From NCBI RefSeq assembly GCF_900539295.1, contig NZ_UQBH01000005.1, positions 2,275-66,274 of the forward strand: a stretch of 64,000 bases of DNA, read 5' to 3'. The notes under the pieces were generated by a model. It ran no database searches and had not been told where the DNA came from. It saw nothing but the letters and a program-made list of their open reading frames with translations. This stretch comes from an uncultured Megasphaera sp. Its GTDB lineage: Bacteria; Bacillota; Negativicutes; Veillonellales; Megasphaeraceae. A program made the translations under genes and the position numbers. This document shows, piece after piece, positions 990 to 64,000 of this stretch (position 1 is the stretch's first letter; each line of letters opens with the position of its first letter).

Positions 990-1008
990 CGTATGTTTCC
1001 CCTCTTTC

Positions 1009-2088: not shown

Positions 2089-2090
2089 GT

Positions 2091-3233
2091 CTAATCTCCT
2101 CTACTGGTCGTCACGGCGTCCCGGATTTGGGACACGGCGTGTTCAATATCTTCTGTCGTATTGTCTTTGCCGACGGACAAGCGGATGCTGCTGCGCAGCC
2201 ACTTTTCTTCGACGCCCATGGCCTGTAGGACGTGGGACGCTTCGACGGCACCGGCTTCACAGGCCGACCCGGCCGATACGGCAATGCCCTGTAAATCGAG
2301 GGCAATGAGTAAAATAGCGCTGTCCACCCCGTCGACGCTGAAGTCGATGATGTTGGGCAGGACCTGACGGCGGCTGCCGTTGAGGCGGAACCGAGGATCG
2401 TCTTTAATGAGCTTGTCGTAGACGAGGTCGGTCAGGACCCGGGCCGCTTTGGCCCGGTCTTCCCGCTCCCTTTCAAGCAAGGCCGCTGCCTCGCCGAAAC
2501 CGACGATGGCGGCGACGTTTTCGGTCCCTGCCCGCAGCCGGTGTTCCTGAGGACCGCCGTAAGCTTCAGATGCCACCTTGAGGCCGTGGCGGATATACAA
2601 GGCGCCGACGCCCTTAGGACCATAAATCTTATGGCTGCAGACGGTGAGCATGTCGATGCCCTGTTCTAAAGGCCGGACGGGAAGATAGCCGAAGGCCTGG
2701 ACGGCGTCGACGTGGAAGGCGACATCCTTTTCCACAGCTACGGCTCCAATGGCTTCAATGGGTTGGATCATGCCCGTTTCATTATTGGCGTACATGACCG
2801 AAATAAGGACCGTATCGTCCCGGATAGCCGCGGCCACGTCCTCTGCCGACGCACAGCCGTCGGGGCCGACGGGGACATAGGTCACGTCATAGCCCTTTTC
2901 TTCCAGAGCCTGAAAGGTGCGCAGGACGGCGTGGTGTTCGACGGCCGTCGTAATGACGTGGCCGCCCTTTGGGAAATTGGCCCGCAGATACCCTAAAATA
3001 GCCAGGTTATCCGCTTCCGTTCCGCCGCTGGTAAAGACCAGGTCTTCGCCGCTGACGCCGAGGACGTGAGCGACTTGACCGCGCGCCTTCTGGACGGCGG
3101 CCCGAGCCTGTTGACCAAAGTAATGGAGGCTCGACGGATTGCCGTAGGATGTCGTCAAATAGGGCATCATGGCGTCCAGGACTTCCCGATCCATAGGCGT
3201 CGCTGCGGCATTATCTAAATAAATGCGTTTCAT
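2091..3233 (-). CDS. Cysteine desulfurase (NifS/IscS-like, YrvO-type, paired with mnmA)
   Basis: MKRIYLDNAAATP...SGGTEADN...SHKIYGPKG, a class V aminotransferase/cysteine desulfurase. The yrvO-trmU-like pairing follows B. subtilis. Confidence 0.85.
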   Translation of the reverse strand: MKRIYLDNAAATPMDREVLDAMMPYLTTSYGNPSSLHYFGQQARAAVQKARGQVAHVLGVSGEDLVFTSGGTEADNLAILGYLRANFPKGGHVITTAVEHHAVLRTFQALEEKGYDVTYVPVGPDGCASAEDVAAAIRDDTVLISVMYANNETGMIQPIEAIGAVAVEKDVAFHVDAVQAFGYLPVRPLEQGIDMLTVCSHKIYGPKGVGALYIRHGLKVASEAYGGPQEHRLRAGTENVAAIVGFGEAAALLEREREDRAKAARVLTDLVYDKLIKDDPRFRLNGSRRQVLPNIIDFSVDGVDSAILLIALDLQGIAVSAGSACEAGAVEASHVLQAMGVEEKWLRSSIRLSVGKDNTTEDIEHAVSQIRDAVTTSRGD

Positions 3234-3334
3234 TTATAGTACTTACTCCTCTATTGACAAAAAAGCCATAAAAAAATAGCTTAATCTTTATAATACCATA
3301 GGGAGGCCGTTTTGTATATCTGCCGAACCGCCGA

Positions 3335-5467: not shown

Positions 5468-5536
5468 ACCACATCTCTCTTTCTGCAATAGACTGTACCT
5501 TATAGTATATCATATTTTGAGGTTTCTTTACAGGGT

Positions 5537-10300: not shown

Positions 10301-10746
10301 AAGCGGTCGGGAAAAATCTGATAGACGATGGCGTGCTTAAACCAGTCCGGCGTCCGCGATGCTCGATCGTACACCGTAATCTGATAGCCCGGCGGTACCG
10401 TTTCATAGACCGCCCCTTCCCCGCCGAGTTGGTCGCAATTGTTTCCGTAGTACCGCGTCGTATCGCCATCTTCGAGGATGAAGTAGTACCAGAGAAGGCA
10501 GCCCTTATCGGGCATGTCGACGACAGCAGTAAAGGCCCCGTCTTCATAGGTCATGGGCATCAGGGCTTCACCGACGTTGCTCTGCCACAGCCGGACCTGA
10601 GCCCTACAGCCTTCGGCACGGCCCTCCGCCGCAAGGCGCAGGATGAGGCGGCTGCCTGCCGGGACGGCGCCGAAGGAAGATCGATAGTAAAAATCATGAG
10701 AGTTGTGATACAGTCGTAAGTCCATAGGAAATCCTTTCGTATTCAT
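7333..10746 (-). CDS. Bifunctional fusion of a GH13 alpha-amylase-family (neopullulanase/cyclomaltodextrinase-like) domain and a GH77 4-alpha-glucanotransferase (MalQ-like)
   Basis: The N-terminal half has GH13 regions (GWRLDVIDELP, GEVWE, LISSHDIERI) and a CBM34-like N-domain. The C-terminal half starts GVLLHPTSLP... and has the amylomaltase signature. Start moved to the ATG after the intercistronic hairpin (MNTKGF...). Confidence 0.8.
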   Translation of the reverse strand: MNTKGFPMDLRLYHNSHDFYYRSSFGAVPAGSRLILRLAAEGRAEGCRAQVRLWQSNVGEALMPMTYEDGAFTAVVDMPDKGCLLWYYFILEDGDTTRYYGNNCDQLGGEGAVYETVPPGYQITVYDRASRTPDWFKHAIVYQIFPDRFYRSRDTDNLWGKEGAVIHSNWYDRPYYCKREGVGDIVYYDFFGGNIKGIQEKLPYLKELGITAIYLNPIFESSSNHRYGTADYFRVDPMLGTNEEFAAFCKAAKEAGMAIILDGVFSHTGADSIYFNRFGHYPGVGAYQSKESPYYEWFRFNNYPDDYESWWGVSDLPDVDETNPSYMDFIINKKDSVLKYWLNQGISGWRLDVIDELPVPFLRQFYKTLKEENPDAVLIGEVWEDASNKVSYSEQREYLSGYDIDSAMNYAQRALMVDFVTGAKDGRRMNDELTRLRENYPKENFYAMLNLISSHDIERILTVLSAAGGTEVATAEDTAKKRLKLLTAWQMTMPGAPCIYYGDEAGLTGGKDPDNRRTYPWGREDWDILGWTKALTRLRTAHDALQTGRFIPLYADGDVFAFARLIEGGRDVFGKPAEDGLFIVAMNRNPSALRTISLYTDGLAYGKFTDALHTRMEPAVTLNSRLTLTLPPLEAVILKGSEAGKKRCGVLLHPTSLPAAVGNGVLGTAACRFVDFLKAGGQQVWQILPLMPPLTGDSPYLSESAFAGNEALISLEVLRDWGWLKDEIVSGFIKKGKEGLSWHEAAAEKARILWNLSHDKNLTISWQPFREFCEANAYWLDDYALFRSIRDFFKGRPWTEWPDDIRRHEEEALARYAKELAGSVSHVKFMQYIFDRQWHELRSYAKKNGVIILGDLPMFVAHDSADCWAHQDQFDLDEEGRPVSVAGVPPDYFSADGQLWGNPLYDYEAMAADGYQWWTDRFHRMKDLFDELRVDHFRGFAAYWAVPNGSPTARDGAWKEGPGLELFRAVYQKLGRLNLVAEDLGVITDDVCALKDDLDLPGMKVFQFHLKDRADGVMAFDTEPNCIAYTGTHDNNTIRGWYEEDLTPSEQLHIRQMLNLSDDVTPEELVQAVIAYTYRRRAETVIVPMQDLLSLPAESRMNVPGVADGNWHWQMTEGQMTFDLARRLAKLCRQSGR

Positions 10747-10753
10747 CAAGAAT

Positions 10754-10779
10754 CCCCCGTCGCACATACCCGACGGGGG
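10754..10779 (-). other. Perfect 9-bp GC-rich stem-loop between the glgA stop and the start of the GH13-GH77 gene
   Basis: CCCCCGTCG-cacatacc-CGACGGGGG. No T-run follows, so it is probably an intercistronic mRNA structure rather than a terminator. Confidence 0.5.
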
Positions 10780-35810: not shown

Positions 35811-36233
35811 TTATGTCCATTGAATTTTCATAAATTTAGGATACTCTTCTTCTATAGTACCTACGAGCATAAAAGCCATATCCAGAAGCACGGCGGGATC
35901 AAAGTGATCCTTTATAAACAGAGACCATCGCATGACGACATCGCCTTCATCACTGACGAAAAACTTGCCAAATCGATACCCCTGATTAAGTTCATTGATC
36001 AATCCCAATACGGCTTCTTTCTTTGAAGGATCTTCTATCTTGGCAATATCAAAAATGCCAAGGTCTACAAAGGTCTCTTCCTCGGAAAATTCATAAACCA
36101 CCGTAAGTATCTGATTGTTTTTAATCTCGTGCTGCGCAATAAAAGCCCGCGTCACGCCCTCATCATCAGTGAGCTCGCGATAGCGATATTCTCTTTCATT
36201 CAGATGATCTCTAAATAAATCCAGTTTGCTCAT
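35811..36233 (-). CDS. YbjN-like domain protein (putative sensory-transduction or chaperone-like regulator)
   Basis: About 140 aa with an acidic, YbjN-like alpha/beta pattern; GGAGG RBS 5 nt from the second ATG. Family call is tentative. Confidence 0.4.
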   Translation of the reverse strand: MSKLDLFRDHLNEREYRYRELTDDEGVTRAFIAQHEIKNNQILTVVYEFSEEETFVDLGIFDIAKIEDPSKKEAVLGLINELNQGYRFGKFFVSDEGDVVMRWSLFIKDHFDPAVLLDMAFMLVGTIEEEYPKFMKIQWT

Positions 36234-36404
36234 TGTTACCTCCATGATAAAAACAAATACGTATCATAACTTTCATTGCTTTTATCATAACACAAATAAC
36301 ACAGAGTCGTAAATATACGTACAATTTTCCCTAAAAAACGACCTCCCAAAGTCAGCTTTTTAATTCTAAACCTCAGGAGATCAAGGACAGCAAAATCGAT
36401 TTCA

Positions 36405-36986
36405 CTAGACATGAATCTTGAACAGGCCGTCACGATTGCAGTAGGCATAGATAAAGCCATGGCCCCGGCTCATGAACCGGCACTGCGCATCCTGTTCGGG
36501 GTACAGCTTCACCAAGGTATAGCGGTCGGCCGTCACATAGGCCATAAAGGAAATATAGTGCTCCTTGGTCATGGGATGGTCGATATGGACGAAGAACTCG
36601 TTTTCTATCATGTCATAGTCAATCTGATGATCTGACGACGCCTCTTCCACCGTAAGGACCGGTAATTTGACACCGCAGCAATGATACGCCCCTTCGCCAA
36701 AGCTGGTGATGATATTGCCGCAAATGGGACAGACGTAAAACTTAAGTTTTTTGACATTGGCCGATCGGTTATCGTTGACGGCATATTCACCGGCAAAGAG
36801 TTCTGCCACAGAAATCCCAAGGGCCTCGGCTAAGGGCGTGATCAAGGTAATATCGGGAAGGCCCTTGCCGGTCTCCCATTTCGAAATCGTCTTGTCGCTG
36901 ATACGCAGTTTCTCAGCTAAATCCTTTTGCGTGAGCTTCTTTTTTTCACGCAGTTCTTTTAACATCGTTCCTGATATATAGTTCAT
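36405..36986 (-). CDS. HTH-XRE transcriptional regulator fused to a desulfoferrodoxin-like module (Dx-type Cys4 site plus a SOR-like domain with His replaced by Asp)
   Basis: N-terminus has the XRE helix-turn-helix (LTQKDLAEKLRISDKTISKWE). The middle has the desulforedoxin motif CPICGN...HCCG (CxxC...CC). The C-terminus carries VHIDHPMTKEHYI...YCNRDG, aligning to the Dfx centre-II motifs (HPM..KH.I...YCNxHG) with the last His replaced by Asp. Confidence 0.6.
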   Translation of the reverse strand: MNYISGTMLKELREKKKLTQKDLAEKLRISDKTISKWETGKGLPDITLITPLAEALGISVAELFAGEYAVNDNRSANVKKLKFYVCPICGNIITSFGEGAYHCCGVKLPVLTVEEASSDHQIDYDMIENEFFVHIDHPMTKEHYISFMAYVTADRYTLVKLYPEQDAQCRFMSRGHGFIYAYCNRDGLFKIHV

Positions 36987-37170
36987 AGTAATTGCACCTC
37001 TTTCTGTTGCTATGACTATCTTAAAATAAAAGGGGCAATAATACTACCTACGGAGCGTAGAGTACCGGATTGTCTTACAAAAAGCAGACACAAACCTTCA
37101 TCATTTATGCTACAATAAAGAAAATATCACATTTTCATTGTTTTTTATTAACATTAAGGAGATGTTCCAT

Positions 37171-37662
37171 ATGCCCCGAAAGTTACTACTGACGCTCATC
37201 CTGTCTTTATGTTTTGCCTTACCTTGCTTGGCCCACTCCTATCCCCTGTCCGAAGCGTATATCGGTGGAGTCGGCCCTAACTGCACCATGAAATATGTCC
37301 AAAGTATTTATGGAGAGCCAAAATCAAAAAAATGGACAGCTACAGACGGCATCCGCAGCGTCACATATTATTACAGCCCCTTATATCAAGTCACGGGCAG
37401 AACCTGGGCCAATCATGCCATACCGGAAGACGAGTTTCCGGTCGTCGGATATACGGTAAAAGCAAATAATCTCACTACCCCGTCGGGCATTACCGTTGGC
37501 GTTCCTTATAGTACCGTTGCGAAAATGTATGGGCCTGGTCAACGATATGTCGAAAAAGGACGCGTAAAATATATTTATAGTTTGCCAAATCAACACGAAA
37601 TATCTTTTACCGTAAATAAAAAGGGTATCATTACAGAGATTTACCTGGGAACTGATTTTTAA
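37171..37662 (+). CDS. Secreted hypothetical protein, paralog A
   Basis: AAGGAG RBS; signal peptide MPRKLLLTLILSLCFALPCLA. Shares the blocks IGGV..T..YVQS.YG.P, N.L.TP.G..VG and a C-terminal KKG.I.EI motif with the 37746-38228 protein. Confidence 0.6.
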   Translation: MPRKLLLTLILSLCFALPCLAHSYPLSEAYIGGVGPNCTMKYVQSIYGEPKSKKWTATDGIRSVTYYYSPLYQVTGRTWANHAIPEDEFPVVGYTVKANNLTTPSGITVGVPYSTVAKMYGPGQRYVEKGRVKYIYSLPNQHEISFTVNKKGIITEIYLGTDF

Positions 37663-37696
37663 AGCCCTTACCGAGAATCGTAATTTAACGTAATGA

Positions 37697-37745
37697 CAAC
37701 AAAAAAACTTGCACAAAGGTCTTGTGCAAGTTTTTTGTAATTATC
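37697..37745. terminator. Bidirectional terminator between the convergent paralog genes
   Basis: CTTGCACAA-aggtc-TTGTGCAAG, flanked by AAAAAAA on the 5' side and TTTTTTG on the 3' side. Confidence 0.75.
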
Positions 37746-38228
37746 TCAAGGCGTCCAATAAATAGAAATTTCAGATATCTTCTTTTTATTATATTTGATC
37801 ATCATATTTTGTTCCCAACTGCCATTGCAGCGGTAGAAATGATTTCCTTTATACAACTCAGACGGACTAAAGTAATCGGTAACCACGGAGATATCCTGAC
37901 CAACGGAAAAGCCGGCTGGCGTCTTTAAGCCGTTATTCGCCGTCGTCCAAACTCGATGAACACCGCCTCTATCATTATACGTAATAAAAAAACTATTCCC
38001 ATAGCGTGCTGTATGAACAGTCTCAAACGTAACCGGATCTTGACTATAAGAAATATTATCCGGCGCACCGTAAACAGACTGGACGTAGGCTTCTGTCGAA
38101 GTTAAACTGACACCGCCAATGGCAATGTGGCTATTCCCGATATACGAGACCCGTGCATGAGCAAAGGACGAAAAGACCATGGTCAAGCAAAAAATCAGGC
38201 CCAACAAAACGACTATCTTCTTTTTCAC
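37746..38228 (-). CDS. Secreted hypothetical protein, paralog B
   Basis: Signal peptide MKKKIVVLLGLIFCLTMVFSSFAHA; shares sequence blocks with the 37171-37662 protein. Confidence 0.6.
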   Translation of the reverse strand: MKKKIVVLLGLIFCLTMVFSSFAHARVSYIGNSHIAIGGVSLTSTEAYVQSVYGAPDNISYSQDPVTFETVHTARYGNSFFITYNDRGGVHRVWTTANNGLKTPAGFSVGQDISVVTDYFSPSELYKGNHFYRCNGSWEQNMMIKYNKKKISEISIYWTP

Positions 38229-47592: not shown

Positions 47593-48867
47593 TTACGGCA
47601 AGTGTTTCAATCCTTTGGCACCGATGTCACGGCGGACTTGCTGGCCGTCAAAGTGGATGCGGTCCACGTTGGCATAAGCCTTATCAATGGCTCCTTTTAG
47701 GTCCGGAGCCACAGCCGTTACACCGAGGACACGGCCGCCATGGGTCACATAAGCCCCATCCTTTTGGGCTGTTCCCGAATGGAAGACCATGGCATCGTCT
47801 CCATCGATGCTGTCGAGGCCGCTGATGACGTCGCCCTTATGGGACGAAGCAGGATAGCCGGCAGAAGCCATGATGACGCAGCAGGCCGAAGCATTTTTCC
47901 AATGCACCATATCCGGCGATAAGGTTCCCTTCGTGCAGGCATACATAATCTGCGCCAGATCTCCGTCGAGGAGGGGCAGGACAGCCTGGGTTTCCGGGTC
48001 GCCGAAGCGGCAGTTGAATTCGACGACTTTTGGGCCTTTTTCGGTAATCATGAGGCCTGCATAGAGGCAGCCCTGATAGGTAATGCCTTCGGCCTTGAGA
48101 CCGTCTATGACGGGCCGTAAAATCGTATCTTCGACGACTTTTTGGATGGCCGGCGTAAAGACCGGAGCCGGGGCATAAGCACCCATGCCGCCCGTATTAG
48201 GGCCTTCATCGTTATCAAAGATTCGCTTATGATCCTGAGCCGAAATCATGGGCACGATCGTCTTGCCGTCGACAAAGGCCAGAAGGCTTGCTTCTTCACC
48301 GACCATGCATTCTTCAATGACGATGCGGCCGCCGGAAGCTCCGAAAATATGGTCTTCCATCATGGCATTGACGGCGTCAATGGCTTCTTCTTCCGTCTGG
48401 GCGACGACGACGCCTTTGCCGGCAGCCAGGCCGTCGGCTTTAACAACGATAGGTGCGCCTTGTTCATGAATGTAAGCTTTGGCTGCATCGCCGTCCGTAA
48501 AGGATTCATAGGCTGCTGTCGGAATCTGATATTTCTTCATGAGATTCTTGGCAAAGACCTTGGAGCCTTCCATCTGAGCAGCCGCTTTATTGGGGCCGAA
48601 TACAGCCAATCCTTTAGCCTGAGCTACATCGGCCAGACCTTCCGTAAGGGGTACTTCCGGACCGACGACCAGCATGTCAATGCCTTCCGAAACGGCGTAA
48701 TCGGCAATGCCTTCGAGGTCGGATAAGGAAATATCGACACACTTGGCGAGGTCAGCCATGGCTGCACTGCCGGGAATGGCGTACAGGGCATCGACACTCG
48801 GGCTCTGAGCCAATTTCCAGGCCAGGGTATGTTCGCGGCCGCCGCCGCCGATGACTGCTACCTTCAT
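47593..48867 (-). CDS. purD: Phosphoribosylamine--glycine ligase
   Basis: [19 protein letters not shown]... ATP-grasp fold; its ATG overlaps the TAA stop of the upstream gene. Confidence 0.9.
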   Translation of the reverse strand: MKVAVIGGGGREHTLAWKLAQSPSVDALYAIPGSAAMADLAKCVDISLSDLEGIADYAVSEGIDMLVVGPEVPLTEGLADVAQAKGLAVFGPNKAAAQMEGSKVFAKNLMKKYQIPTAAYESFTDGDAAKAYIHEQGAPIVVKADGLAAGKGVVVAQTEEEAIDAVNAMMEDHIFGASGGRIVIEECMVGEEASLLAFVDGKTIVPMISAQDHKRIFDNDEGPNTGGMGAYAPAPVFTPAIQKVVEDTILRPVIDGLKAEGITYQGCLYAGLMITEKGPKVVEFNCRFGDPETQAVLPLLDGDLAQIMYACTKGTLSPDMVHWKNASACCVIMASAGYPASSHKGDVISGLDSIDGDDAMVFHSGTAQKDGAYVTHGGRVLGVTAVAPDLKGAIDKAYANVDRIHFDGQQVRRDIGAKGLKHLP

Positions 48868-49472
48868 TATTTTGCAGCTCCCTTCTCAACCTGTTCTGCC
48901 AGATACGCAGCAATAGCCGTATCGTAGACGGCCGTATGATGAAAGGCTTCCTGCGCCAGTTCCAAGCGGTATTCATCGGAGAAGGCACCGTCTTTTTGGA
49001 GGATGGAAATGATTTCGCCATACTTGTCGGGATTGGTTACGATGGCAACATATTTGTTGTTCTTCGCCGAAGCTCGGACCATGCAGGGACCGCCGATGTC
49101 GATATTTTCAATGGCTTCGGCCAAGGTGACATTCGGTTTTGCAATGGTCTGCTGGAAGGGATAGAGGTTGACGACGACCAAGTCGATCGGCGTAATATCG
49201 TGGTCTTTCATGGCCTTTACGTGTTCCGGGTTGTCGCGGACGGCCAGGATGGCACCGTGAATCTTCGGGTTCAGGGTCTTGACGCGGCCGTCCATCATTT
49301 CCGGAAAGCCCGTTACGTCCTGAACGGCGATGACCGGTACGCCCGCTTCTTTTAACGTACGCATAGTACCGCCCGTCGAAATGATTTCAATACCGAGAGC
49401 CGCCAAGGCCTTGCCTAATTCGACGACGCCCGTTTTATCAGATACACTAATGAGTGCGCGTTTTACCTTCAT
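48867..49472 (-). CDS. purH: IMP cyclohydrolase domain only (PurH N-terminal, MGS-like); the AICAR transformylase domain is absent
   Basis: [15 protein letters not shown]...GGTMRTL...[10 protein letters not shown] is the PurH IMPCH domain. The ORF ends after 201 aa at a TAATG junction with purD. Confidence 0.75.
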
Positions 49473-53103: not shown

Positions 53104-53120
53104 CAGAACCCCTCCTTAGG

Positions 53121-53160
53121 AATAACAAAACCCAAAAGTGACAGAAATCACCTTTGGGCT
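53121..53160 (-). promoter_or_regulatory. Leader hairpin with T-run (attenuator/terminator-like) immediately upstream of the purE RBS
   Basis: On the minus strand: GCCCAAAGGTGA-tttctg-TCACTTTTGGG followed by TTTTGTTATT, then the TAAGGAGG RBS. This resembles a riboswitch or attenuator expression platform, but no aptamer class could be assigned. Confidence 0.4.
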
Positions 53161-53390
53161 TTTCAGTTAGATACACGGAGACTGTTTACAAACGGCATAA
53201 AAACCTGTCCATAAACATTTTGTCATAGTGCGTCTCCTCATTGATTAAAATATTTATCAAACACACTTTGATTCTATCAAAAACACACGTGACTGTCAAT
53301 GAAAATCCGCCTTTCTATGGCAAGACAGTATCCCCCACCAAGGGACTGTGTTACAATGGAATAAAGATGCGATGGAACGGAGGAATACCG

Positions 53391-55922
53391 ATGAATTTAA
53401 ATGAGAAGCAGCAGCAGGTCGTGAATGAGCTGTCAGAGTCGATTTTACTCAACGCCCCGGCCGGAACCGGCAAGACCCGGGTCCTGGCAGCCAGGGTTGC
53501 CAATATATTGGCCCAAAAGAAGGCCAAGGGCTCGGAAATCCTATGCCTGACCTTCACCAACCGAGCCTGCAAGGAACTGAAGAACCGCATCATCGACACG
53601 GTACCGGAAGAAGGCTTCGCCGTCACGGTAAAGACCATTCACAGTTTCTGCTACAGCCTCATCAAAGAAGAGACGAAACGGCAGAGCGACCGATACCATG
53701 ATTTCCTGATCTATGACGACGAAGACTGTAAACAACTCCTCGCTTCCATAGACCTTACGAGAACGACACCGCGTCCGGCATTACAGGAACTTCAGACCTT
53801 CATCGAATTTGAAAAAAAGAAACGCGTCATCCCCGGCCTGCGCGATTTCACCAATATTCAGGATGACCTCAAGGGTTGGCTCGCAGACTACGGCGAAGAC
53901 CTTGTTTGGGAATACGATATCGCCCTTGCCGACAACCATGCCATCGATTTTACCGACCTCATTACCGGGGCCTATGAATTTCTCCAAGACGATGCCGTCT
54001 GCCGCCGCTGGCGGGAACGGTACCGCTTTATCTCAGTCGACGAAATGCAGGATACGAGTGAAGTCGAATATACCGTCATCAGCCGCCTCTTTCCGGGCCG
54101 CAACATTCTCCTCTGCGGCGACTACTTCCAAACCATTTACGAATGGCGCGGCTCCTATCCTCAATACATTTGGCAAGAGTTTAGAAACGACTATCAGCCT
54201 CTGGAAGTTACCTTCACCACCAATTACCGGGCCACTCAGCTCTTGCTGGAAGCTTCTCAGTCCTTCTTATTCCGCACCTTGGGGAAAGTGACCGTCCAGA
54301 GCATCTATACCGAGCCGGGCATTTCGGCCTCAAAGGATTGCGGCGCCCCCATCGTCCTCCATAAAGCCGGCACCGGGTTCGAGGAAGCCCGCTGGATTTT
54401 CCGGGAAATCAAAGCCCTTCCTCCGGAAGAACGCCTGAAGGCCTGCATCCTCGTCCGCGACAACCGCCAGGCTAAGCTGATCTGGATGGGCATTACGTCG
54501 CATAACCAAAAGTACCCGCAAGACCAGCAGCTGCCGGTCACCTGCATCGACCAATTCCACCTGTTTAAGCGGCAGGAATGCAAAGACGTCCTGGCTTATC
54601 TGCGCCTCGTGCTCAATAAACACGACAACCTCAGCCTGAAGCGAGTCGTCCAACGCTTCGTCCCCCGCATCGGCCGACGTACCCTGGAAACCATCGAAAG
54701 CGATTCCTATCGAAAGGTCGGCCTCATGCTCAGCGACTTCATCGACCCCCTGTCCCACCAAGGGGGTGACCCTTACGGGCTCCTACTGACGGCACTCGCC
54801 GAAGGACGGCTGGTCGTCTTCGACGTCGAAAGTACAGGCACCGACACGACGCAGGATGAAATCATCCAAATCGCTGCCATCCGCCTCGATGCGAAAGGGC
54901 AGCCCATCGATAAGTTCAACACTTATGTAAAAGCCGGACGATCCGTCGGCACGTCGTACTACGTCCATCACATCAGCGACGAAAAACTGGCCGCTGAAGG
55001 GATTCCTCCGAAAGAAGCCCTGACAAAATTCTTGGCCTTTGCAAAAAATGCCGTCATCGTCGGCCACAACGTCACCTACGACTTATCCATCCTCCAAAGC
55101 GAACTGCAGCGCCTGGGAATTTCCGAAAGTGCCGACTTTCCCTACTACGATACCCTCGACATCTACCGCCGCTTTTACCCCACCTTGCTCAACCATAAGT
55201 TAGAGACCTTGAGCCGCCTCTTCCCCAGCGGCCACAAGCCGACACACGACGCCTTTGACGATATTTTGGCTACAGCCGGGCTCCTGATCCATGCCATAAA
55301 GGAAAAGATTCGCCCGACGGAAACAGCCCGCCGGGCCGCTATGGCCATCTATCTCCCCCTCTTTGCCCCCTTCAGCCGAGAAATGGACGCTTTGCGGCGC
55401 TTATCCTATCAGGCACGGCCCACGAAAATGATTACGTCCGTCATGAATGACAACGGCGTCAAAGCCTGGTATCAAACACATCGTGACACCTCCGACAGAG
55501 ACAACCACATCGATCGCTTGGAAAACATCCGTAAGCTCTACCGCATCGCCAAAGAAACAGACGACGCCGAACAGAATCCGCGCGATGCCCTGACCGAATT
55601 TCTCAAGATGACGGCCCTTTCGAACAGCGAGCTCGACAGCATGCTGGCCAAGGACCCGAAAATACCGATTATCACCATTCACCAAGCCAAAGGCCTTGAA
55701 TTCGACTACGTCTTTATGGCCAGTTTAGAAGACCATGTCTTCCCGACTTATTGGGCCCGTCAAAAAGGGGATATTGAAGAAGAAAAACGCCTCTTTTATG
55801 TCGCCATGACGCGAGCAAAAAAGAGGCTGTATCTCAGCTGGCACCAAGGATTTGGCCGGCAGAGCTATCTGCCGAGCCGCTTCTTGAATGGTGTCAATCG
55901 GGACTATTGTGAAATCAGATAA
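53391..55922 (+). CDS. UvrD/PcrA-family superfamily-1 helicase with an inserted DnaQ-like DEDDh 3'-5' exonuclease domain
   Basis: Walker A NAPAGTGKT and motif II DEMQDTS in the N-terminal half. Exo motifs VVFDVESTG, VGHNVTYDLSIL and HKPTHDAFDD at about aa 480-650. UvrD C-terminal motif TIHQAKGLEFDYVFM. Start set to the ATG with a GGAGGAA RBS. Confidence 0.75.
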   Translation: MNLNEKQQQVVNELSESILLNAPAGTGKTRVLAARVANILAQKKAKGSEILCLTFTNRACKELKNRIIDTVPEEGFAVTVKTIHSFCYSLIKEETKRQSDRYHDFLIYDDEDCKQLLASIDLTRTTPRPALQELQTFIEFEKKKRVIPGLRDFTNIQDDLKGWLADYGEDLVWEYDIALADNHAIDFTDLITGAYEFLQDDAVCRRWRERYRFISVDEMQDTSEVEYTVISRLFPGRNILLCGDYFQTIYEWRGSYPQYIWQEFRNDYQPLEVTFTTNYRATQLLLEASQSFLFRTLGKVTVQSIYTEPGISASKDCGAPIVLHKAGTGFEEARWIFREIKALPPEERLKACILVRDNRQAKLIWMGITSHNQKYPQDQQLPVTCIDQFHLFKRQECKDVLAYLRLVLNKHDNLSLKRVVQRFVPRIGRRTLETIESDSYRKVGLMLSDFIDPLSHQGGDPYGLLLTALAEGRLVVFDVESTGTDTTQDEIIQIAAIRLDAKGQPIDKFNTYVKAGRSVGTSYYVHHISDEKLAAEGIPPKEALTKFLAFAKNAVIVGHNVTYDLSILQSELQRLGISESADFPYYDTLDIYRRFYPTLLNHKLETLSRLFPSGHKPTHDAFDDILATAGLLIHAIKEKIRPTETARRAAMAIYLPLFAPFSREMDALRRLSYQARPTKMITSVMNDNGVKAWYQTHRDTSDRDNHIDRLENIRKLYRIAKETDDAEQNPRDALTEFLKMTALSNSELDSMLAKDPKIPIITIHQAKGLEFDYVFMASLEDHVFPTYWARQKGDIEEEKRLFYVAMTRAKKRLYLSWHQGFGRQSYLPSRFLNGVNRDYCEIR

Positions 55923-57196: not shown

Positions 57197-58063
57197 ATGG
57201 ACCTTCGCCAACTCACGTATTTCTTAGCCATCGCCGAAGAAGGCCAGATCACAGCGGCCGCTCGGCGTCTAAATATGGCCCAACCGCCTTTGAGCCAGCA
57301 AATGAAAGCCCTGGAAGAAGAACTGGGTGTCGAACTCTTTCTGCGGGAACCGCGCAGCGTCACCTTGACCGATGCCGGCGAAATCCTCTACCGCCGGGCC
57401 CGCCAGCTCATTACCCTCGCCGACTCGACGCGCCGCGAAATCGGCGACTTTAAAAACGGCCTGCGGGGCACCTTAGCCATCGGCACCGTCTCGTCATCGG
57501 GCAGCGTCATCCTCCGGCCGGCCCTGCGGCAGTTTCACGACAGCCACCGCGGCATCCGCTTTGAAATCTACGACGGCAACACCTTCCATGTCTTAGACAT
57601 GCTGCGAAAAGGCCTGATTGAAATCGGCATCGTCCGAACCCCCTTTAAGCAGGAATCCTTCGACTGCACCTTTTTACCGGAAGAGCCTATGGTCCTGGCC
57701 TATGGCGGAAAAGATCCGAAGCCTGACAAAGAAACCCTTGCCATCGGCGATTTAGAAGGCCTGCCGCTCATCGTCTACCGCCGCTTCAACCAGCTTCTCC
57801 TCGACGTCTGCGAAGGCCATAACGTAACGCCGTCCATCATCTGCCGCAACGACGATGCCCGGACGACCCTCCTCTGGGCCGAAGCCGGACTGGGCTATGC
57901 CGTCGTTCCAGCATCAGCCCTGTCTCGTGGACGATTGACGACACTGAAAACGAAGGTCATCGACGAACCGCTTCTTCGCACTCGCCTGGCCGTCATCACG
58001 GCCAAACATCGCTACCTGTCCGGCATTGCCGGCCAATTCATCGAAGCCTTAACCAAAGCCTGA
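57197..58063 (+). CDS. LysR family transcriptional regulator, divergent from the chrA pair
   Basis: MDLRQLTYFLAIAEEGQITAAARRLNMAQPPLSQQM LysR HTH. Confidence 0.85.
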   Translation: MDLRQLTYFLAIAEEGQITAAARRLNMAQPPLSQQMKALEEELGVELFLREPRSVTLTDAGEILYRRARQLITLADSTRREIGDFKNGLRGTLAIGTVSSSGSVILRPALRQFHDSHRGIRFEIYDGNTFHVLDMLRKGLIEIGIVRTPFKQESFDCTFLPEEPMVLAYGGKDPKPDKETLAIGDLEGLPLIVYRRFNQLLLDVCEGHNVTPSIICRNDDARTTLLWAEAGLGYAVVPASALSRGRLTTLKTKVIDEPLLRTRLAVITAKHRYLSGIAGQFIEALTKA

Positions 58064-58066
58064 GGA

Positions 58067-58573
58067 TTATTCCTTAACGGCCAAGCCCTCCAAATGCAGG
58101 AGGGCTATTTTTTTATCGATACCGCCGGCATAGCCCGTCGCCTTGCCGCTGGCCCCTAAGACACGGTGGCAGGGAATGATGACCGAAATGGGATTATGAC
58201 CGACAGCGCCGCCAACGGCCTGGGCCGACATGGCCTTCCCCGTCTGAGCTTCAATGGTTTTAGCCAGGGTGCCGTAAGTCGTCGTCTGGCCGTAAGGAAT
58301 CTGGCAGAGAAGGCCCCACACGCGGCGTCGGAATTCATTGCCTTCCGGTGCCAAAGGCAGGGTCATGATAGCCGGCATACGACCGGCAAAGTAATCATCA
58401 AGCCAATGGGCAGCCTTCTGCAGCACCGGCGTTTCTTTCACCGTCACCTCAACCCCCTTCAATCCGTCCCTATCATATTTCTGCCCGTCAAACCAAAGGC
58501 CGACCAAGGCCGTTTCATTGGCAGCTATGGTCATCGCCCCTAAAGGCGACGCATAGCCCATCGTATAATACAT
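58067..58573 (-). CDS. ogt: Methylated-DNA--protein-cysteine methyltransferase
   Basis: Active-site PCHRV motif and the DNA-binding helix; 168 aa. Confidence 0.85.
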   Translation of the reverse strand: MYYTMGYASPLGAMTIAANETALVGLWFDGQKYDRDGLKGVEVTVKETPVLQKAAHWLDDYFAGRMPAIMTLPLAPEGNEFRRRVWGLLCQIPYGQTTTYGTLAKTIEAQTGKAMSAQAVGGAVGHNPISVIIPCHRVLGASGKATGYAGGIDKKIALLHLEGLAVKE

Positions 58574-58823
58574 CGTAAGTACATCCTTTCGATTATTGTG
58601 GTCAATCGTTACCTTTTAATTTTCACCTCACGGCTATTGTCTATACCGTTCAATCGGTTCTCAATAATTCCTAATTTGTAAATCTCGTCATTCGACCACC
58701 TTACCATAATATATATTCCACGTATTAAAAGAATCAATATTGAAGAAAAATCCTGTAGTTATAATGTTTCTCTCCACCCATTTCCATTTTATACCTTTCA
58801 TCTCCGCGAGATAAATCCAATCC

Positions 58824-59765
58824 TCAAATCGTTGAATGTTCCTGCAAATATTTAACGCTTTCACTGATCATAACCTTACCCGGTGCATACTGTGAAAAAT
58901 CACTATCCATGGCTACGATGGGAAAAACAATTTCATCAAAATTAGTGAGGAAACCGCTCATAAAAGCAGCCGGGCGATTATTCAAAAATAGGCAAAAGGT
59001 ATAATGCGAATCCATCTTTTCCATAGCCCATGTCAAAGCAGAAAAATATCGATGCTTAAGGAATGGAAAAAAATCTCGCTTGCGGTGTTTTCGTTCTGAC
59101 TCTCTCTTCGTATAAATTCTCATCAAACTTGATAAAAGTTCTTTATTCTCGATAGGTCCCCGAATTACTTCCAAACGAATCTCGGCATTCGTTTTCTTTG
59201 CTTTATTGTAAGCCTTATGGAGGTTAGACCTGGAATTACGGGATAAACCCTGAAAATAACTTTCGTACTCATCTGGAAACATTACCTTAACACAGACTCG
59301 GTCCATTTCCATTTTCATACAGTACTGTTCAGACAACTCATTTTGATGCTGCATGAAGAAATGATAGAGTCGAGAGCGCTGATTTATTTTATAAAGTCTC
59401 AGTTCCATCCCACGAAATTGTTGACCTAACTCGTTTAAAGCCGAAAAAATCTGTTCGTCTGCAATATTTTTATCATAAATAAAATCTAAATTACCAGCCC
59501 CGCTAATATTTTCGCCAAAAATATAGACCTTATTCTTTTTGACAAATACCGGAATTACCATCAACGGCCTCGTCGGTTCCTTCTCCGCATAATAAATAAA
59601 GAAATGGTCTTTTTGGCGCAACGTTGTGGGTTTTACTTTTTTATATTTAAAAATATATTCATTATATTCTCTAGACGAGTAAGGAAACACATACGCATTC
59701 TCTTGATACAGTTTTTTCCAAGTCTCTGTCAAAGTCGAACTTTTCCAGTCATACTCAATCAACAC
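58824..59765 (-). CDS. GNAT-fold acyl/acetyltransferase (CelD/BioF2-like or FemAB-like), low-GC
   Basis: 313 aa, about 33% GC; the C-terminal fold pattern resembles PF13480-type GNATs. Family call is moderate. Confidence 0.45.
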   Translation of the reverse strand: MLIEYDWKSSTLTETWKKLYQENAYVFPYSSREYNEYIFKYKKVKPTTLRQKDHFFIYYAEKEPTRPLMVIPVFVKKNKVYIFGENISGAGNLDFIYDKNIADEQIFSALNELGQQFRGMELRLYKINQRSRLYHFFMQHQNELSEQYCMKMEMDRVCVKVMFPDEYESYFQGLSRNSRSNLHKAYNKAKKTNAEIRLEVIRGPIENKELLSSLMRIYTKRESERKHRKRDFFPFLKHRYFSALTWAMEKMDSHYTFCLFLNNRPAAFMSGFLTNFDEIVFPIVAMDSDFSQYAPGKVMISESVKYLQEHSTI

Positions 59766-59795
59766 TCCAACATTCCTCCAATGAACGAAAAAATA

Positions 59796-60003
59796 CTATG
59801 CATAGTATTTTTTATACCAAGCAGCAAACTGTTCCAGCCCTTCTTCAATCGTCGTTTCCGGCTTAAAATCAAAGTCGCGCTGCAATTCGCTGACGTCAGC
59901 ATAAGTCTGATAGACGTCGCCGGCCTGCATAGGCAGATATTCTTTTTCTGCAAAAAAATTATCAGGACACATATAAAAAAGCTCATAAAGATGGCCTCTA
60001 CAC
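59796..60003 (-). pseudogene. Remnant 3' end of an NAD-dependent sugar-nucleotide epimerase gene (host-like GC), trapped between low-GC genes
   Basis: Minus-strand frame gives ...NFFAEKEYLPMQAGDVYQTYADVSELQRDFDFKPETTIEEGLEQFAAWYKKYYA*, matching the conserved C-terminus of UDP-glucuronate/WbpP-type epimerases (YLPMQPGDV..TYADV..L......P.T...EGL..F..WY..YY). About 50% GC against about 33% for its neighbours. There is no N-terminal part, because the LtaS-like gene stop abuts it. Confidence 0.55.
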
Positions 60004-62016
60004 TTAGATATGGCGAACCATCCATGCCGTCAATGATACATAGTCCGAAGCTAAACGTTCTCCTCGATTACCAGCAACATTATATTTTTCACGCAAATCA
60101 ATCGTCGCCTCACCTTGAGCTTCGGCCTTTCCAGACATTACCTCACCCAATTCATCTGTCGTCATCCATTGCTTTGGAGTCACAATATACTCTGGCTGTT
60201 CCTGTGTTAGTGATGGATAAAGCGAATAATACGTAAAACCTTTAGGTGCAATCAATTCAAAAACCGTAGGCATAATATTCAAATGAGTCCCTATCGTCGC
60301 CCCCGAAAACCAGTCTTGCGAAAGATCCCGATGATGAATTAACAGCGGTGTACAATATAATTCACGAAACAGATAGTCTCGCGGCACCAACGATGAGTTG
60401 CCTAAGTCCCCATACAAACTGGAATGATCTCCCGTATAAATAAAGAGACTATCGGGAAAAGCATCCTTCATTTCAGCAATAAACTGACTTACAGCTTGGT
60501 CAGCATAGCGCGCTGTTCCCAAAGCGCGGCAGCGGCTTTCACTATCTCTAATATCTGTTTTAATAGTACTATCAAAAACAGACTTATCAAAATTTAATAC
60601 GTCATATTTCAATTTATAAGGACCATGGTTCGATGTCGTATAAATAAAATGAAATGTCGGTTCTTCAAAATTCTTGATTCGTCTGGCAGCTTCTTTTAAA
60701 AATACATGATCGTATACACCAACCCAAGTCTGAGGCGCCTTAGGTCCACAAAAAGAAGTTGCACTTTCGACACAGTCAAAACCTTGAGCGATACCAAAAT
60801 GATTAAAGTTACCATTTGACGCATTGCCACCATACCAGTAAATCGTTCGGTAACCTAATTTTTTCATCTGACCGGCAAATGTCGTAGGAACACTTTTTTT
60901 CCAAAATAATTCCATCTCATTTAGTTCTAACTGTGCGTCATAGATTCCCGCCATCAAAGAAACGATGGATGGTCTGGAAATATTTCCAGCCGGTAAAAAT
61001 TTATTAAAATAGACTGTATTAGGATTATTAATCAAAGCCTTGGTTCCATCCATTATATGCAATCCAGCATATAATGGATCAAGTGCCCATTGCGGTACAC
61101 TCTCTCCAACAATAAGGAACACATGCTTCGGCTTTTTGATTTTGGCTCCCTGTGCAGTACGGACAAATGCCATCAGAGGATTTTCTAAAGACTGCCAGTT
61201 TAAAAAATAGTCATTGGGCATGATATCTGTAATGTGCTGCACTAAGTCTTCATCACTATACTGCATTTCATCTGCCAACGGTTTCCGACGCACCCATTTT
61301 AGCGCTACCAAATCGTCGATACATGCTCTAGCTAAGAAAGAATCTTCCTTGACAATTGAAGGAATTGTATCCCATTCCGGCTTATTTCGATGGTCTAAGG
61401 TACCTCCGAATCTGACCCAATAAAAACCGACGATAGCTAAGACAAAGACAAGCACATTAAAAGTATATTTCTCAACAGGTAAATCGAAGATAGGCAATCC
61501 AATAGAAGGTATGCTCTGCAAAGCAAGACAAGCTAATAAAACTAAAATAGTATATGGTATATATCCAATCAAGATCCATGCACCATAATCTTCATGAAAA
61601 AAAACATCGATAAGATTGCGTTTTTCCGCATTTTTACCCATGTTAAGCAAATAATTATATGTATCATGAAAATGGCGATAGAAAATCAGTTTCCCCATAA
61701 ACGCCGTATATAAAATCACGGCATAAATACCGCCAATACTTAATCGAAGTTCCAGACCATGCACTCTAAAAAAGTCAAAAAAGGCCGCGGGAATCGAAAT
61801 TAAAACGAAAGAAACCAAAAACACATAAGCGTTAAAATCCATCCCCCACCAAAACCCATATCGAAAACATTCAAAAAGGGCTTTTCCTCTGCCACTAAAT
61901 GAAGAGTACGGTTGATATATTTTTATAAAGGCTAGTCTAAACACAGCACTCAAAATCGGAAAAAATAAAAATAATTTAATATCCTGTTGCAAGCCATAAA
62001 AGAAATATTCAAACAT
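60004..62016 (-). CDS. LTA synthase/sulfatase-family (phosphoglycerol transferase-like) membrane protein
   Basis: N-terminal polytopic membrane domain plus an extracellular alkaline-phosphatase-superfamily domain (LIVGESVP..., ...YTGDHS...); 670 aa; low GC. Confidence 0.65.
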   Translation of the reverse strand: MFEYFFYGLQQDIKLFLFFPILSAVFRLAFIKIYQPYSSFSGRGKALFECFRYGFWWGMDFNAYVFLVSFVLISIPAAFFDFFRVHGLELRLSIGGIYAVILYTAFMGKLIFYRHFHDTYNYLLNMGKNAEKRNLIDVFFHEDYGAWILIGYIPYTILVLLACLALQSIPSIGLPIFDLPVEKYTFNVLVFVLAIVGFYWVRFGGTLDHRNKPEWDTIPSIVKEDSFLARACIDDLVALKWVRRKPLADEMQYSDEDLVQHITDIMPNDYFLNWQSLENPLMAFVRTAQGAKIKKPKHVFLIVGESVPQWALDPLYAGLHIMDGTKALINNPNTVYFNKFLPAGNISRPSIVSLMAGIYDAQLELNEMELFWKKSVPTTFAGQMKKLGYRTIYWYGGNASNGNFNHFGIAQGFDCVESATSFCGPKAPQTWVGVYDHVFLKEAARRIKNFEEPTFHFIYTTSNHGPYKLKYDVLNFDKSVFDSTIKTDIRDSESRCRALGTARYADQAVSQFIAEMKDAFPDSLFIYTGDHSSLYGDLGNSSLVPRDYLFRELYCTPLLIHHRDLSQDWFSGATIGTHLNIMPTVFELIAPKGFTYYSLYPSLTQEQPEYIVTPKQWMTTDELGEVMSGKAEAQGEATIDLREKYNVAGNRGERLASDYVSLTAWMVRHI

Positions 62017-62286
62017 AAAAGCTCTCCTTATACTGTCTACTCGGCTGGATTAATATGCATATTCGAATGCTATTAGTCTAACGATCAAAGCACCTATATA
62101 GTTTTAACTGACAAGGTTTGCGGTAAATAATTCTATAAATAATATAGACGATGTCTCTATTATTATCTTCAACACTTCAATGTAATACAATCCCTCTAAT
62201 GGAATCAAAAATAAAAGTTCAATCACATTAATATATACATCAAACAAATAACAAAAATACACCTAGAAGATATTATCTTATCAGCT

Positions 62287-63519
62287 CTAAGTACGTAATT
62301 TGTTTCTATTCACATCGGATACTTCTCTTAACTGAATCATTAAAGCTAATATGAACCACAAAGTTCGAATTACAGATGACAGACGATAGGTCGGCTGAAA
62401 AACACCAAAAAGTACCATTCCCGCTAAAAATACCGTAAAGAAAATCAAGTCACAAGGATTTCTATGCTCTAGCCACCGTTTAAAGGGCGAAATCAGAAAA
62501 AATCCGTAGAAATACAGCAAGCCTAAAAAACCAATAGTTCCGGTTTCAGCCAATAATTGCATATAATTACTGTGGGCATGCGGTAAATTTTGAGTCTCTT
62601 CCGCATATCGGTATCCTTTATTTTTATAATACCAGTTCCAATTATTTAGTCCAACCCCATTGATTGGATAATCCTTAAACATATCAACGCTCGCCTTCCA
62701 GGCCCATATACGATCAACATTTGATTTATTAGTTGTCGTATTCATTGTGGTAGATAAACGTTCCACGTATTTAGGACTACTTCCAATAGTGCCACCGATC
62801 AGTAAAAGTATAATCAAAACAATCCCTGCAATCTTTTTGCTGTTCCGCAAATAATAAAACAAATAAAAGGGAGCAACTAAAGCGCTGACTAAAAATGCAC
62901 CTCTTCCAAAACATCCAAAAAGTCCGGCAATCGAACTAATCACACCTAAAAGTGCAAATTTTTTAATATTTTTATCAAAAGATGAATCCAAAAGAATAAT
63001 AGCTGACAGAGCCAAAACCATACAAATAATCGCGGTCAAATCCAGATAGTCGCCATGAAACCCACGGCCTCTCTCCCAATGCAAGATAAAAAACTGATAA
63101 CAAGCCACAAAACAATCTATCGAAAAAACGCCTAAAAAACCCGCTAATATCTTTAATAAATACTCTTTCTGCCGTACAAAAGCAACGATTAAAACAAAGA
63201 CCATAAAGCGCCAAACCCAATCGCCTAAAAAATAGTAAAATGTGGCAGCTTTATTATCAACGTCAATAATAGAAAATAAGGCCGCTGCAAAAAAAATCCC
63301 TACTGCTTTCATATACTTCTTTGCCAAAGGATTTAATTCTAATCTTTTCCCGTTTTTCCACCATAAGTAAACCCCCATCAGAGTTGCTAGCGCTAGTGAA
63401 ATTTGAGAAACAGCTGTGGATAATCGAGTTAAGCAAACTCCCAGTCCAATCAAAACGGCCATCACAATCTCAAAAACTGGTGCTGATTGGTAAAAGCTTA
63501 TTTTATTATTGTTCTCCAT
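62287..63519 (-). CDS. O-antigen ligase/polymerase (WaaL/Wzy-like) family membrane protein
   Basis: 410 aa with 10 or more transmembrane segments and a periplasmic loop carrying a Wzy_C-like pattern; low GC. Confidence 0.6.
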   Translation of the reverse strand: MENNNKISFYQSAPVFEIVMAVLIGLGVCLTRLSTAVSQISLALATLMGVYLWWKNGKRLELNPLAKKYMKAVGIFFAAALFSIIDVDNKAATFYYFLGDWVWRFMVFVLIVAFVRQKEYLLKILAGFLGVFSIDCFVACYQFFILHWERGRGFHGDYLDLTAIICMVLALSAIILLDSSFDKNIKKFALLGVISSIAGLFGCFGRGAFLVSALVAPFYLFYYLRNSKKIAGIVLIILLLIGGTIGSSPKYVERLSTTMNTTTNKSNVDRIWAWKASVDMFKDYPINGVGLNNWNWYYKNKGYRYAEETQNLPHAHSNYMQLLAETGTIGFLGLLYFYGFFLISPFKRWLEHRNPCDLIFFTVFLAGMVLFGVFQPTYRLSSVIRTLWFILALMIQLREVSDVNRNKLRT

Positions 63520-64000
63520 TTTATATTCACCATCTAGATTAGATTTATTATTTCAAAAGCTATTCGAATAACTTTTCCATATATTCCCACTCAGAAATAA
63601 TAATTTTTTAATAGATATACTTTCAAGATAAAGCCTATATCCTCAGCCTTGATTTCACAGAAGAACTTGTACCTTCCTTATACCATCCATCAATGTTTCC
63701 ACCATTAAATCATTATAGATATTCATAAATGGCCTATAGATATTAAATTGACAAACAGCGCTATAATACATAGCTCATCGAACCATTGGATTGAGAGAAA
63801 AAGCATATCCAGCCTCAAACTATTTGAATAAATGATACAATTCATCATTCTCTACTAATTGATTAAAAACTATTTGTGCTGTAATATTTTTCATGCATTT
63901 CACCGTCTTACACTTACGTGCAGTTTCATCATTGCATGGTGAACATTCATAGTTTAAATATATTGGCGTACATTTTTTCTAGGCGCCCAACGTGAAGGTA

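Follow-up and report, generated by a model that had tools for sequence, protein, structure and literature searches.

A UvrD-family helicase with a DEDDh exonuclease inside subdomain 2B, found in Megasphaera and other anaerobes

Introduction

Fusions of helicases and nucleases recur in DNA repair, with AddAB/RecBCD, ExoDinG, WRN and Dna2 as familiar cases. A gene from an uncultured Megasphaera sp. raises the question of how a UvrD-type motor and a proofreading-type exonuclease can be combined in one polypeptide, and what such an enzyme might do for its host. The gene lies on the forward strand, at positions 53391 to 55922, of the DNA analysed here: a stretch of 64,000 nucleotides from contig NZ_UQBH01000005.1 (assembly GCF_900539295.1), which we refer to as the window. 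It encodes a protein of 843 amino acids (aa), called here the helicase-exonuclease or, in comparisons, the query. A first-pass annotation, made from the letters of the DNA alone, had described it as a UvrD-family helicase with a DEDDh 3'-5' exonuclease inserted before its C-terminal helicase domain. It considered the architecture uncommon and proposed a role in repair or defence.

In this work, we find that a UvrD-class motor and a DnaQ-class exonuclease are joined via the mobile 2B subdomain. Both active sites are conserved across the family and are under selection. The protein is a variant of the helicase-nuclease theme, with the nuclease placed inside 2B, and not a new category. Its placement bears on a current question: 2B has been described as the master regulator of UvrD-family helicases in recent cryo-electron microscopy and biophysical work (PMC11912403, PMC13238157).

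The exonuclease is nested within subdomain 2B

Domain profiles, alignment to solved helicases and a predicted structure divide the gene as follows (EcUvrD, E. coli UvrD).

53391..55922 (+), coding sequence of the 843-aa helicase-exonuclease; stop codon TAA at 55920-55922
53397..54194 (+), UvrD/REP N-terminal helicase region, subdomains 1A and 1B, aa 3-268 (Pfam PF00580, E 3e-56; aligned to EcUvrD from residue 9)
53454-53477 (+), Walker A motif APAGTGKT, within the aa 3-268 region
54039-54053 (+), motif II DEMQD, within the aa 3-268 region
54210..54707 (+), N-terminal halves of 2A and 2B, aa 274-439, the first part of the UvrD_C match
54663-54683 (+), equivalent of the GIG motif, PRIGRRT
54708..54806 (+), helical linker, aa 440-472 (33 aa), where the insert starts; unaligned to UvrD or PcrA
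54807..55316 (+), DEDDh (DnaQ/PolC-type) 3'-5' exonuclease domain, aa 473-642 (RNase_T at aa 475-631; alpha/beta fold confident in the predicted structure)
54819-54839 (+), Exo I motif FDVESTG of the exonuclease domain
55062-55082 (+), Exo II motif GHNVTYD of the exonuclease domain
55245-55262 (+), Exo III motif HDAFDD of the exonuclease domain
55317..55919 (+), C-terminal halves of 2B and 2A, aa 643-843 (query 643-835 aligned to EcUvrD 448-636)
55677-55715 (+), motif V region IHQAKGLEFDYVF, after the insert
55800-55829 (+), motif VI VAMTRAKKRL, after the insert
55848-55868 (+), GFGRQSY, aligned to EcUvrD LYGKEVY

The Pfam matches are nested. UvrD-helicase covers aa 3-268 and is followed by UvrD_C in one stretch spanning aa 274-819 (E 2e-107). 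RNase_T (E 6e-25) falls within that stretch, and UvrD_C_2 matches aa 760-815. PF21762 (DEDDh_C), considered as an extra domain after the exonuclease, was rejected as an overlapping model of the same domain. When the query is compared with solved structures by phmmer, residues 2-439 correspond to EcUvrD 9-430 and residues 643-835 to EcUvrD 448-636. The sole break in this alignment is a module of 203 aa (linker plus exonuclease, aa 440-642) that substitutes for EcUvrD residues 431-447. All the motifs quoted in the first-pass annotation are found where it placed them: APAGTGKT (aa 22-29), DEMQD (aa 217-221), FDVESTG (aa 477-483), GHNVTYD (aa 558-564), HDAFDD (aa 619-624) and IHQAKGLEFDYVF (aa 763-775). 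Its statement that the insert precedes the C-terminal helicase domain is right in that motifs V and VI come after the insert, but the insert itself lies inside subdomain 2B.

The point of insertion can be placed against what is known of UvrD. The insert begins nine residues past the GIG motif, which in UvrD comprises residues 414-422 and contacts duplex DNA (PMC5973834). Since the query numbering here is the EcUvrD numbering plus nine, R430 and T431 correspond to UvrD R421 and T422. UvrD R421 is in turn the counterpart of M. tuberculosis UvrD1 C451, a residue of the 2B-2B dimer interface, and this interface is built from C451, the helix V452-T459 and the loop K474-N479 (PMC11912403). Judging from the alignment and the published UvrD and UvrD1 structures, the exonuclease module would sit right after the GIG motif and between both elements of the 2B-2B interface.

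Outside the exonuclease domain, the linker carries the family-invariant residues G444, D449 and L465 together with a conserved GDPY motif, and is folded into four short helices in the predicted structure. Further along, the EcUvrD segment LYGKEVY, and hence GFGRQSY of the query, is presumably the strand-separation hairpin of the UvrD structure. Only eight residues are left beyond the equivalent of EcUvrD residue 636 (query 835 of 843), so there is no room for the C-terminal Tudor extension of about 70 aa.

An AlphaFold2 (AF2) model built on 36 homologues has a pLDDT of 88.6 and a pTM of 0.83. With Foldseek, the model superposes on the closed UvrD-DNA structure 2is6_A (TM-target 0.80, E 4e-35) and has the four-subdomain 1A/1B/2A/2B fold of superfamily 1A (SF1A) helicases, while the open apo form of UvrD (3lfu) is a poorer match at 0.63. 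Foldseek returned no entry of the PDB that covers the exonuclease part or the whole chain (TM-query at most 0.63). Together with the catalytic alignment and conservation described below, the nested profiles uphold the claim of a UvrD-family motor with a complete DEDDh exonuclease inserted internally.

Both active sites are conserved

The query has the residues expected of the UvrD/REP SF1A family, as defined by Pfam PF00580 plus PF13361: G25-T-G-K28-T29, D217-E218-x-Q220-D221, G243/D244/Q247, R280, Q765/K767/G768 and R808. It likewise has the motifs of the DEDDh superfamily (PF00929), that is, D-x-E in Exo I, D in Exo II and H-x4-D in Exo III. The exonuclease residues D478, E480, D564, H619 and D624 align with those of the T. 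maritima PolC exonuclease 2p1j (LDFETTG / HNANFD / HRALDD). The best solved relatives of the domain are the PolC exonucleases 9qpc (E 4e-18) and 2p1j (E 4e-16), Cas2-DEDDh and ExoDinG 8zef (E 3e-7).

This catalytic equipment is maintained at both sites. Across an alignment of 36 homologues (lowest identity 45%), the five exonuclease residues never vary, and neither do G25/G27/K28/T29, D217/E218/Q220/D221, R280 and R808 of the helicase; G243/D244/Q247 and Q765/K767/G768 are likewise constant. In 115 full-length representatives of clusters at 50% identity, whose identity to the query is 30-60%, the complete DEDDh pentad is present in 114 and the motor residues are essentially invariant. On alignment, then, the exonuclease motifs are not degenerate, and from the residues present both active sites are apparently catalytically competent. 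The pentad is lost in one representative only, the 820-aa protein P0262, which reads GREEL and keeps its helicase motifs intact. We take it to be an exonuclease-dead variant that arose naturally, although an error of sequencing or alignment may also account for it.

A widespread family under generic names

The architecture is not uncommon, contrary to what was first supposed. A scan of one genome per species found relatives encoded in at least 579 species genomes, and nearly all of the best 80 matches span the full length of the query. Members from Negativicutes come from Megasphaera, Veillonella (including V. parvula), Selenomonas, Pectinatus, Mitsuokella and Schwartzia. Those from Clostridium sensu stricto come from C. 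perfringens, C. drakei, C. sartagoforme and Sarcina. Scattered members of other groups make up the rest, and a protein search added C. botulinum, C. sporogenes and C. tepidum. An exhaustive HMMER search with the segment running from 2B through the exonuclease and back into 2B (the 2B-exo-2B segment) gave 159 clusters at 50% identity (E at most 1e-30). Most of the HMMER matches listed are proteins of about 800-900 aa with the match at residues of about 400-740. In a few relatives the 1B insertion is larger, or the chain is extended by a Sel1/TPR tail at its C-terminus or by extra residues at its N-terminus.

The same nested design also occurs in Bacteroidota. A protein of Prevotella nigrescens (WP_004367753.1, 899 aa) is 24% identical to the query and collinear with it across both junctions, and a second case is encoded on a Chryseobacterium plasmid. 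Despite this spread, the database names are generic ('3'-5' exonuclease', 'helicase', 'UvrD-helicase domain-containing protein'), and a full-text literature search turned up no account of an internal DEDDh domain in a UvrD-type helicase. Of the prospect that this might be a well-annotated, widespread family of known function, only the wide occurrence holds. The family is widespread in gut and oral anaerobes yet, as far as we found, uncharacterised.

Genomic context

In the window, the helicase gene is monocistronic. It is divergent from purE (AIRC) and convergent with two chromate-transporter half genes (chrA), overlapping the first of them by 8 nt; beyond the chromate genes lie a LysR regulator and then an O6-methylguanine methyltransferase. 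The GC content of the gene matches that of its surroundings.

To compare contexts, an all-against-all BLASTP comparison was used to group the open reading frames (ORFs) of 82 loci. Each cluster of neighbours was confined to a single genus, so there is no universal partner and a conserved operon partner was rejected. Within genera, the position of the gene is fixed. The eight Megasphaera loci have chrA and the LysR gene downstream in common. In Veillonella (24 loci), the order is dnaX-ybaB-recR, an 83-aa ORF and the helicase gene, with a pseudouridine synthase 26 nt downstream. Selenomonas and Mitsuokella (11 loci) have comEA-comEC upstream, with a gap of 20-45 nt in 3 of the 11. In Pectinatus the order is PEPCK, helicase gene, mltG, and in C. 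botulinum the gene lies between trkAH and DUF116. The overall pattern is that of a core gene inherited vertically, in some cases placed beside genes for replication, recombination or DNA uptake; it is unlike that of a defence-island gene.

The 83-aa ORF of Veillonella is an observation in its own right. At locus L063 (Veillonella parvula), the gap of about 270 nt between recR and the helicase gene holds this unannotated hydrophobic ORF (MGALLASPIISAV...), and the same spacing recurs in most of the 24 Veillonella loci. About 12 nt separate its stop codon from the helicase ATG, and the Shine-Dalgarno sequence of the helicase gene falls in this interval. The ORF has no Pfam match, and its position recalls that of bofA after recR in B. 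subtilis.

Proposed role and mechanism

What would an enzyme of this design do? We put it at slightly above an even chance that it is a core-genome DNA-maintenance enzyme, in which a UvrD/PcrA-type motor works with a DnaQ/PolC-type exonuclease that digests the 3'-ended strand unwound by the same chain. This estimate applies to the general role; the detailed cycle that follows deserves less confidence.

SF1A motors move 3'->5', with single-stranded DNA bound in the order 5'-2A-1A-3' (PMC11912403), so the tracked strand exits the motor 3'-end-first, at subdomain 1A. In the proposed cycle, the motor would load on a 3'-terminated strand at a nick, a gap or a 3' tail. It would then peel that strand from its complement, the strand emerging 3'-end-first at 1A, and the tethered exonuclease would catch the 3' end and digest the strand behind the motor. 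In this way, an exonuclease that is specific for single-stranded DNA would gain the ability to excise or resect strands of duplex DNA, powered by ATP. Attack on the displaced strand appears disfavoured because this strand shows its 5' end at the junction that is entered.

The location of the insert also has consequences for the motor. In UvrD-family helicases, the contact between 2B and duplex DNA is autoinhibitory and is relieved by 2B-2B dimerisation or by partner proteins (PMC13238157). The insert of the query takes up the 2B surface through which these helicases either touch the duplex (the autoinhibited monomer) or pair 2B with 2B (the active dimer), and helicase activation is therefore probably rewired. 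Engagement of the exonuclease could then be coupled to, or gated by, the rotational state of 2B. A more ambitious version, which we regard as doubtful, has the exonuclease module replace dimerisation or partner proteins as the switch, so that capture of a 3' end sets the rotation of 2B and licenses a monomeric motor. If true, the enzyme would be a self-contained, 3'-end-gated strand-excision machine. It could supply the poorly defined excision step, performed by a helicase and a 3'-5' exonuclease, of MutH-independent mismatch repair, or the processing of post-replicative gaps, in Negativicutes, Clostridium and Prevotella. A natural family with an enzyme of 200 aa at the GIG/2B-2B interface is, moreover, a ready-made test of how 2B controls unwinding, and it may reveal an unstudied repair activity in commensals and pathogens that are abundant in humans (Veillonella, Megasphaera, Prevotella, Selenomonas, C. 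perfringens and C. botulinum).

Several points weigh against a maintenance enzyme that digests the strand it unwinds. The main weakness is one of geometry. When 2B is closed it covers the duplex in front of the fork, well away from the 1A exit, and the exonuclease may therefore be unable to reach the tracked 3' end unless 2B swings widely or the subunits of an oligomer act in trans. Homologous domains are the basis for the polarity that we propose for each activity, and likewise for the substrate and the coupling. No neighbour is shared across genera, and the adjacency to recR or comEC, being genus-specific, could be incidental. Finally, there were no matches to the Firmicute-type LexA box GAAC-N4-GTTC within 300 nt upstream of the gene at 85 loci and in the window, and therefore there is no sign of damage induction or LexA regulation.

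Alternative explanations

One alternative is that the protein is the lineage's own PcrA/UvrD orthologue, the exonuclease being an accessory add-on that leaves the role unchanged. Its tasks would be those of PcrA: RecA removal, RNA polymerase backtracking, nucleotide excision repair and rolling-circle replication. The helicase core does find its best NCBIfam and PDB matches in PcrA and UvrD, and all the helicase motifs and the GIG-like motif are kept. The scores, however, are far too low for orthology as these models define it. No NCBIfam equivalog model passed at its cutoff: the PcrA model TIGR01073 gives 332 bits against a cutoff of 911, two UvrD models give 283-287 bits against 965-1144, and the Rep model, at 266 bits, is far under its cutoff. 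The protein also has neither the C-terminal extension nor the Tudor domain, and the 2B activation surface is interrupted by the 203-aa module. Firmicutes normally carry an essential, canonical pcrA next to ligA, which counts further against this explanation; no second UvrD-like gene was found in the window or in the flanks of the loci. We consider both the orthology and the PcrA-type roles that go with it unlikely.

Alternatively, the enzyme could be directed at RNA. Its motor would unwind RNA:DNA hybrids (R-loops) at transcription-replication conflicts, and the DEDDh domain would degrade the 3' end of the RNA. This is plausible by analogy with ExoDinG: B. subtilis DinG is described as an exo(ribo)nuclease by which replication stress is mitigated (PMC12525004). 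Pfam also gives the Rv2179c-like exoribonuclease family as a weak match (E 5e-4), and the Veillonella gene adjoins the replication genes dnaX and recR. The nearest relatives of the exonuclease, on the other hand, are DNA proofreading domains. The Tudor domain is what tethers PcrA/UvrD to RNA polymerase, and the query is without one. On balance, an RNA-directed role seems quite unlikely.

Defence was the other half of the role first suggested. A defence helicase-nuclease of the GajB, Nhi or DRT-associated helicase kind would degrade the DNA of invading phages or plasmids from its 3' ends. The query has strong PADLOC matches (RTasHel at 6e-129, many GajB models and a cas-associated DEDDh model at 1.9e-34), but these are generic UvrD and DEDDh similarity. 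Further points in favour are an orphan GajA-like OLD nuclease gene elsewhere in the window (5564-7225) and the Chryseobacterium homologue, which sits on a 44-kb plasmid beside an MkoA-like SF1 protein and keeps the option alive for some members. Yet 46 kb separate the GajA-like gene from the helicase gene, and the 25 neighbour clusters that recur most widely at the 82 loci include no OLD-type gene. Relatives are scarce on mobile elements. With the 2B-exo-2B segment as query, tblastn against 50,697 phage records found no family member, only matches to the exonuclease domain below 35% identity, and among plasmids the only full-coverage match was a replicon of 2.6 Mb.

Gabija was considered as a specific candidate, with the query as GajB, and was rejected because it requires an adjacent GajA; here the flanking genes are purE and chrA, and the only GajA-like gene in the window is the distant one.

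The plasmid homologue deserves a note of its own. Chryseobacterium plasmid pA2BH1 (NZ_MN657149.1, 44 kb; coordinates 1-5143 of locus L087) encodes an 859-aa helicase-exonuclease of the same architecture. Its gene directly follows that of a very large SF1 (AAA_11/AAA_12) protein with MkoA-like PADLOC matches. The pair could be a mobile two-gene cassette with a conflict-related role.

For the family at large, a single gene with no conserved partner, in fixed housekeeping positions in each genus (pur/chrA, dnaX-recR, comEC, PEPCK/mltG), with a GC content like that of its surroundings and absent from phage records, makes defence very improbable. Of the 'repair or defence' first proposed, the fixed synteny within genera and the scarcity on phages and plasmids favour core DNA maintenance, with defence the less favoured part.

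Start codon and upstream signals

The open frame of the helicase-exonuclease extends from 53241 to 55922 (+), and a TTG at 53241 is an alternative start. Two upstream signals were read from the sequence.

53379..53383 (+), Shine-Dalgarno sequence GGAGG, with a 7-nt spacer to the ATG at 53391
53349..53357 (+), candidate extended -10 promoter TGTTACAAT (TGn plus TACAAT), about 34 nt before the start codon

The ATG at 53391, rather than the TTG, is likely to be the true start because GGAGG lies 7 nt upstream of it and because the 843-aa product equals the length of Megasphaera sp. protein P0001, which is 98% identical to the query over 100% of its length (source name '3'-5' exonuclease'). The element TGTTACAAT is a candidate for the extended -10 element of the helicase gene. 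A consensus promoter scan did not call it, since there is no good -35 hexamer.

Other features of the window

On the opposite strand, the leader of purE (53104-53299) has a near-consensus promoter, TTGACA-17-TAGAAT with a TG (53299..53271), and a 16-bp terminator-like hairpin just upstream of purE (53162..53127). An Rfam search over the whole window found no family at the gathering score, so no known riboswitch accounts for the leader, which may hold an attenuator or riboswitch of the pur operon that has yet to be catalogued. A PurH-like ORF of 201 aa (48867-49472, minus strand) lies between purN-like and purD-like genes. It has the MGS (IMP cyclohydrolase) domain and only the first 62 of 311 AICARFT_IMPCHas positions, the AICAR transformylase part being missing from the locus.

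The orphan OLD-family ATPase-TOPRIM nuclease (5564-7225, minus strand) matches GajA very strongly (PADLOC model PDLC00085, E 1e-127) and has no adjacent GajB/UvrD helicase. After it come a type IA topoisomerase (Toprim, Topoisom_bac and Zn ribbon; 3335-5488, minus strand) and a cysteine desulfurase (2091-3233, minus strand). The OLD gene could be a class-1 OLD gene or part of an unusual pairing of OLD with topoisomerase. A glycogen operon with GlgA-, GlgB- and GlgP-type genes opens with a gene (7333-10767, minus strand) for a 1144-aa fusion of an alpha-amylase catalytic domain with a 4-alpha-glucanotransferase (GH77). GC content falls to 0.34-0.42 at 58000-64000 and at about 36000-38000, against about 0.54 elsewhere. 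The 58-64 kb segment encodes a GNAT-like ORF of 313 aa and a sulfatase-family protein of 670 aa, and the low-GC DNA may be horizontally acquired.

Comparison with known systems

The closest relatives of the motor are UvrD, PcrA and Rep (2is6, 3pjr, 1uaa, 9des). The query shares with them the 1A/1B/2A/2B fold (TM 0.80), the helicase motifs and a GIG-like motif. It differs in the 203-aa linker and DEDDh module within 2B, in having no Tudor extension and in scoring far under the PcrA, UvrD and Rep cutoffs.

AddA and RecB, of the AddAB and RecBCD complexes, also fuse a UvrD-like 3'-5' motor to a nuclease whose substrate is the tracked 3' strand, and they are structural neighbours of the query. Their nuclease is, however, a C-terminal PD-(D/E)xK endonuclease, and they need the partners AddB or RecC/RecD. 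The query has no PD-(D/E)xK domain, its addA/recB model scores are 84-130 bits against cutoffs of about 700-860, and no addB or recC/recD partner gene was found in its flanks. Human WRN combines a RecQ-family 3'-5' helicase with a 3'-5' exonuclease in one protein. The resemblance is an analogy only, WRN being a eukaryotic protein with a superfamily 2 (SF2) RecQ motor and an N-terminal, DEDDy-type exonuclease.

ExoDinG (DinG of B. subtilis and S. aureus; 8zef) likewise joins a DnaQ-like exonuclease and a DNA helicase in one chain in Firmicutes, and the two exonucleases are homologous. The motor of ExoDinG is a Rad3/XPD-like SF2 helicase of 5'-3' polarity and its exonuclease is N-terminal, whereas the query has an SF1A motor and an internal exonuclease; DinG models match the query only in the exonuclease (aa 472-641). 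A role in replication stress is proposed for ExoDinG (PMC12525004, PMC12345164). Clostridia also have ExoDinG (PMC3270479), and the helicase-exonuclease family is therefore not simply an ExoDinG replacement.

In function, the proposed cycle follows the logic of AddA and RecB and also that of the excision step of mismatch repair in E. coli, where UvrD exposes a strand and the DEDDh 3'-5' exonucleases ExoI or ExoX remove it. B. subtilis has a comparable pair in the helicase MrfA and its partner MrfB, a DEDDh exonuclease (PMC11194089). In the E. coli and B. subtilis systems, helicase and exonuclease are separate polypeptides, and MrfA belongs to SF2; in the query, the two are covalently joined.

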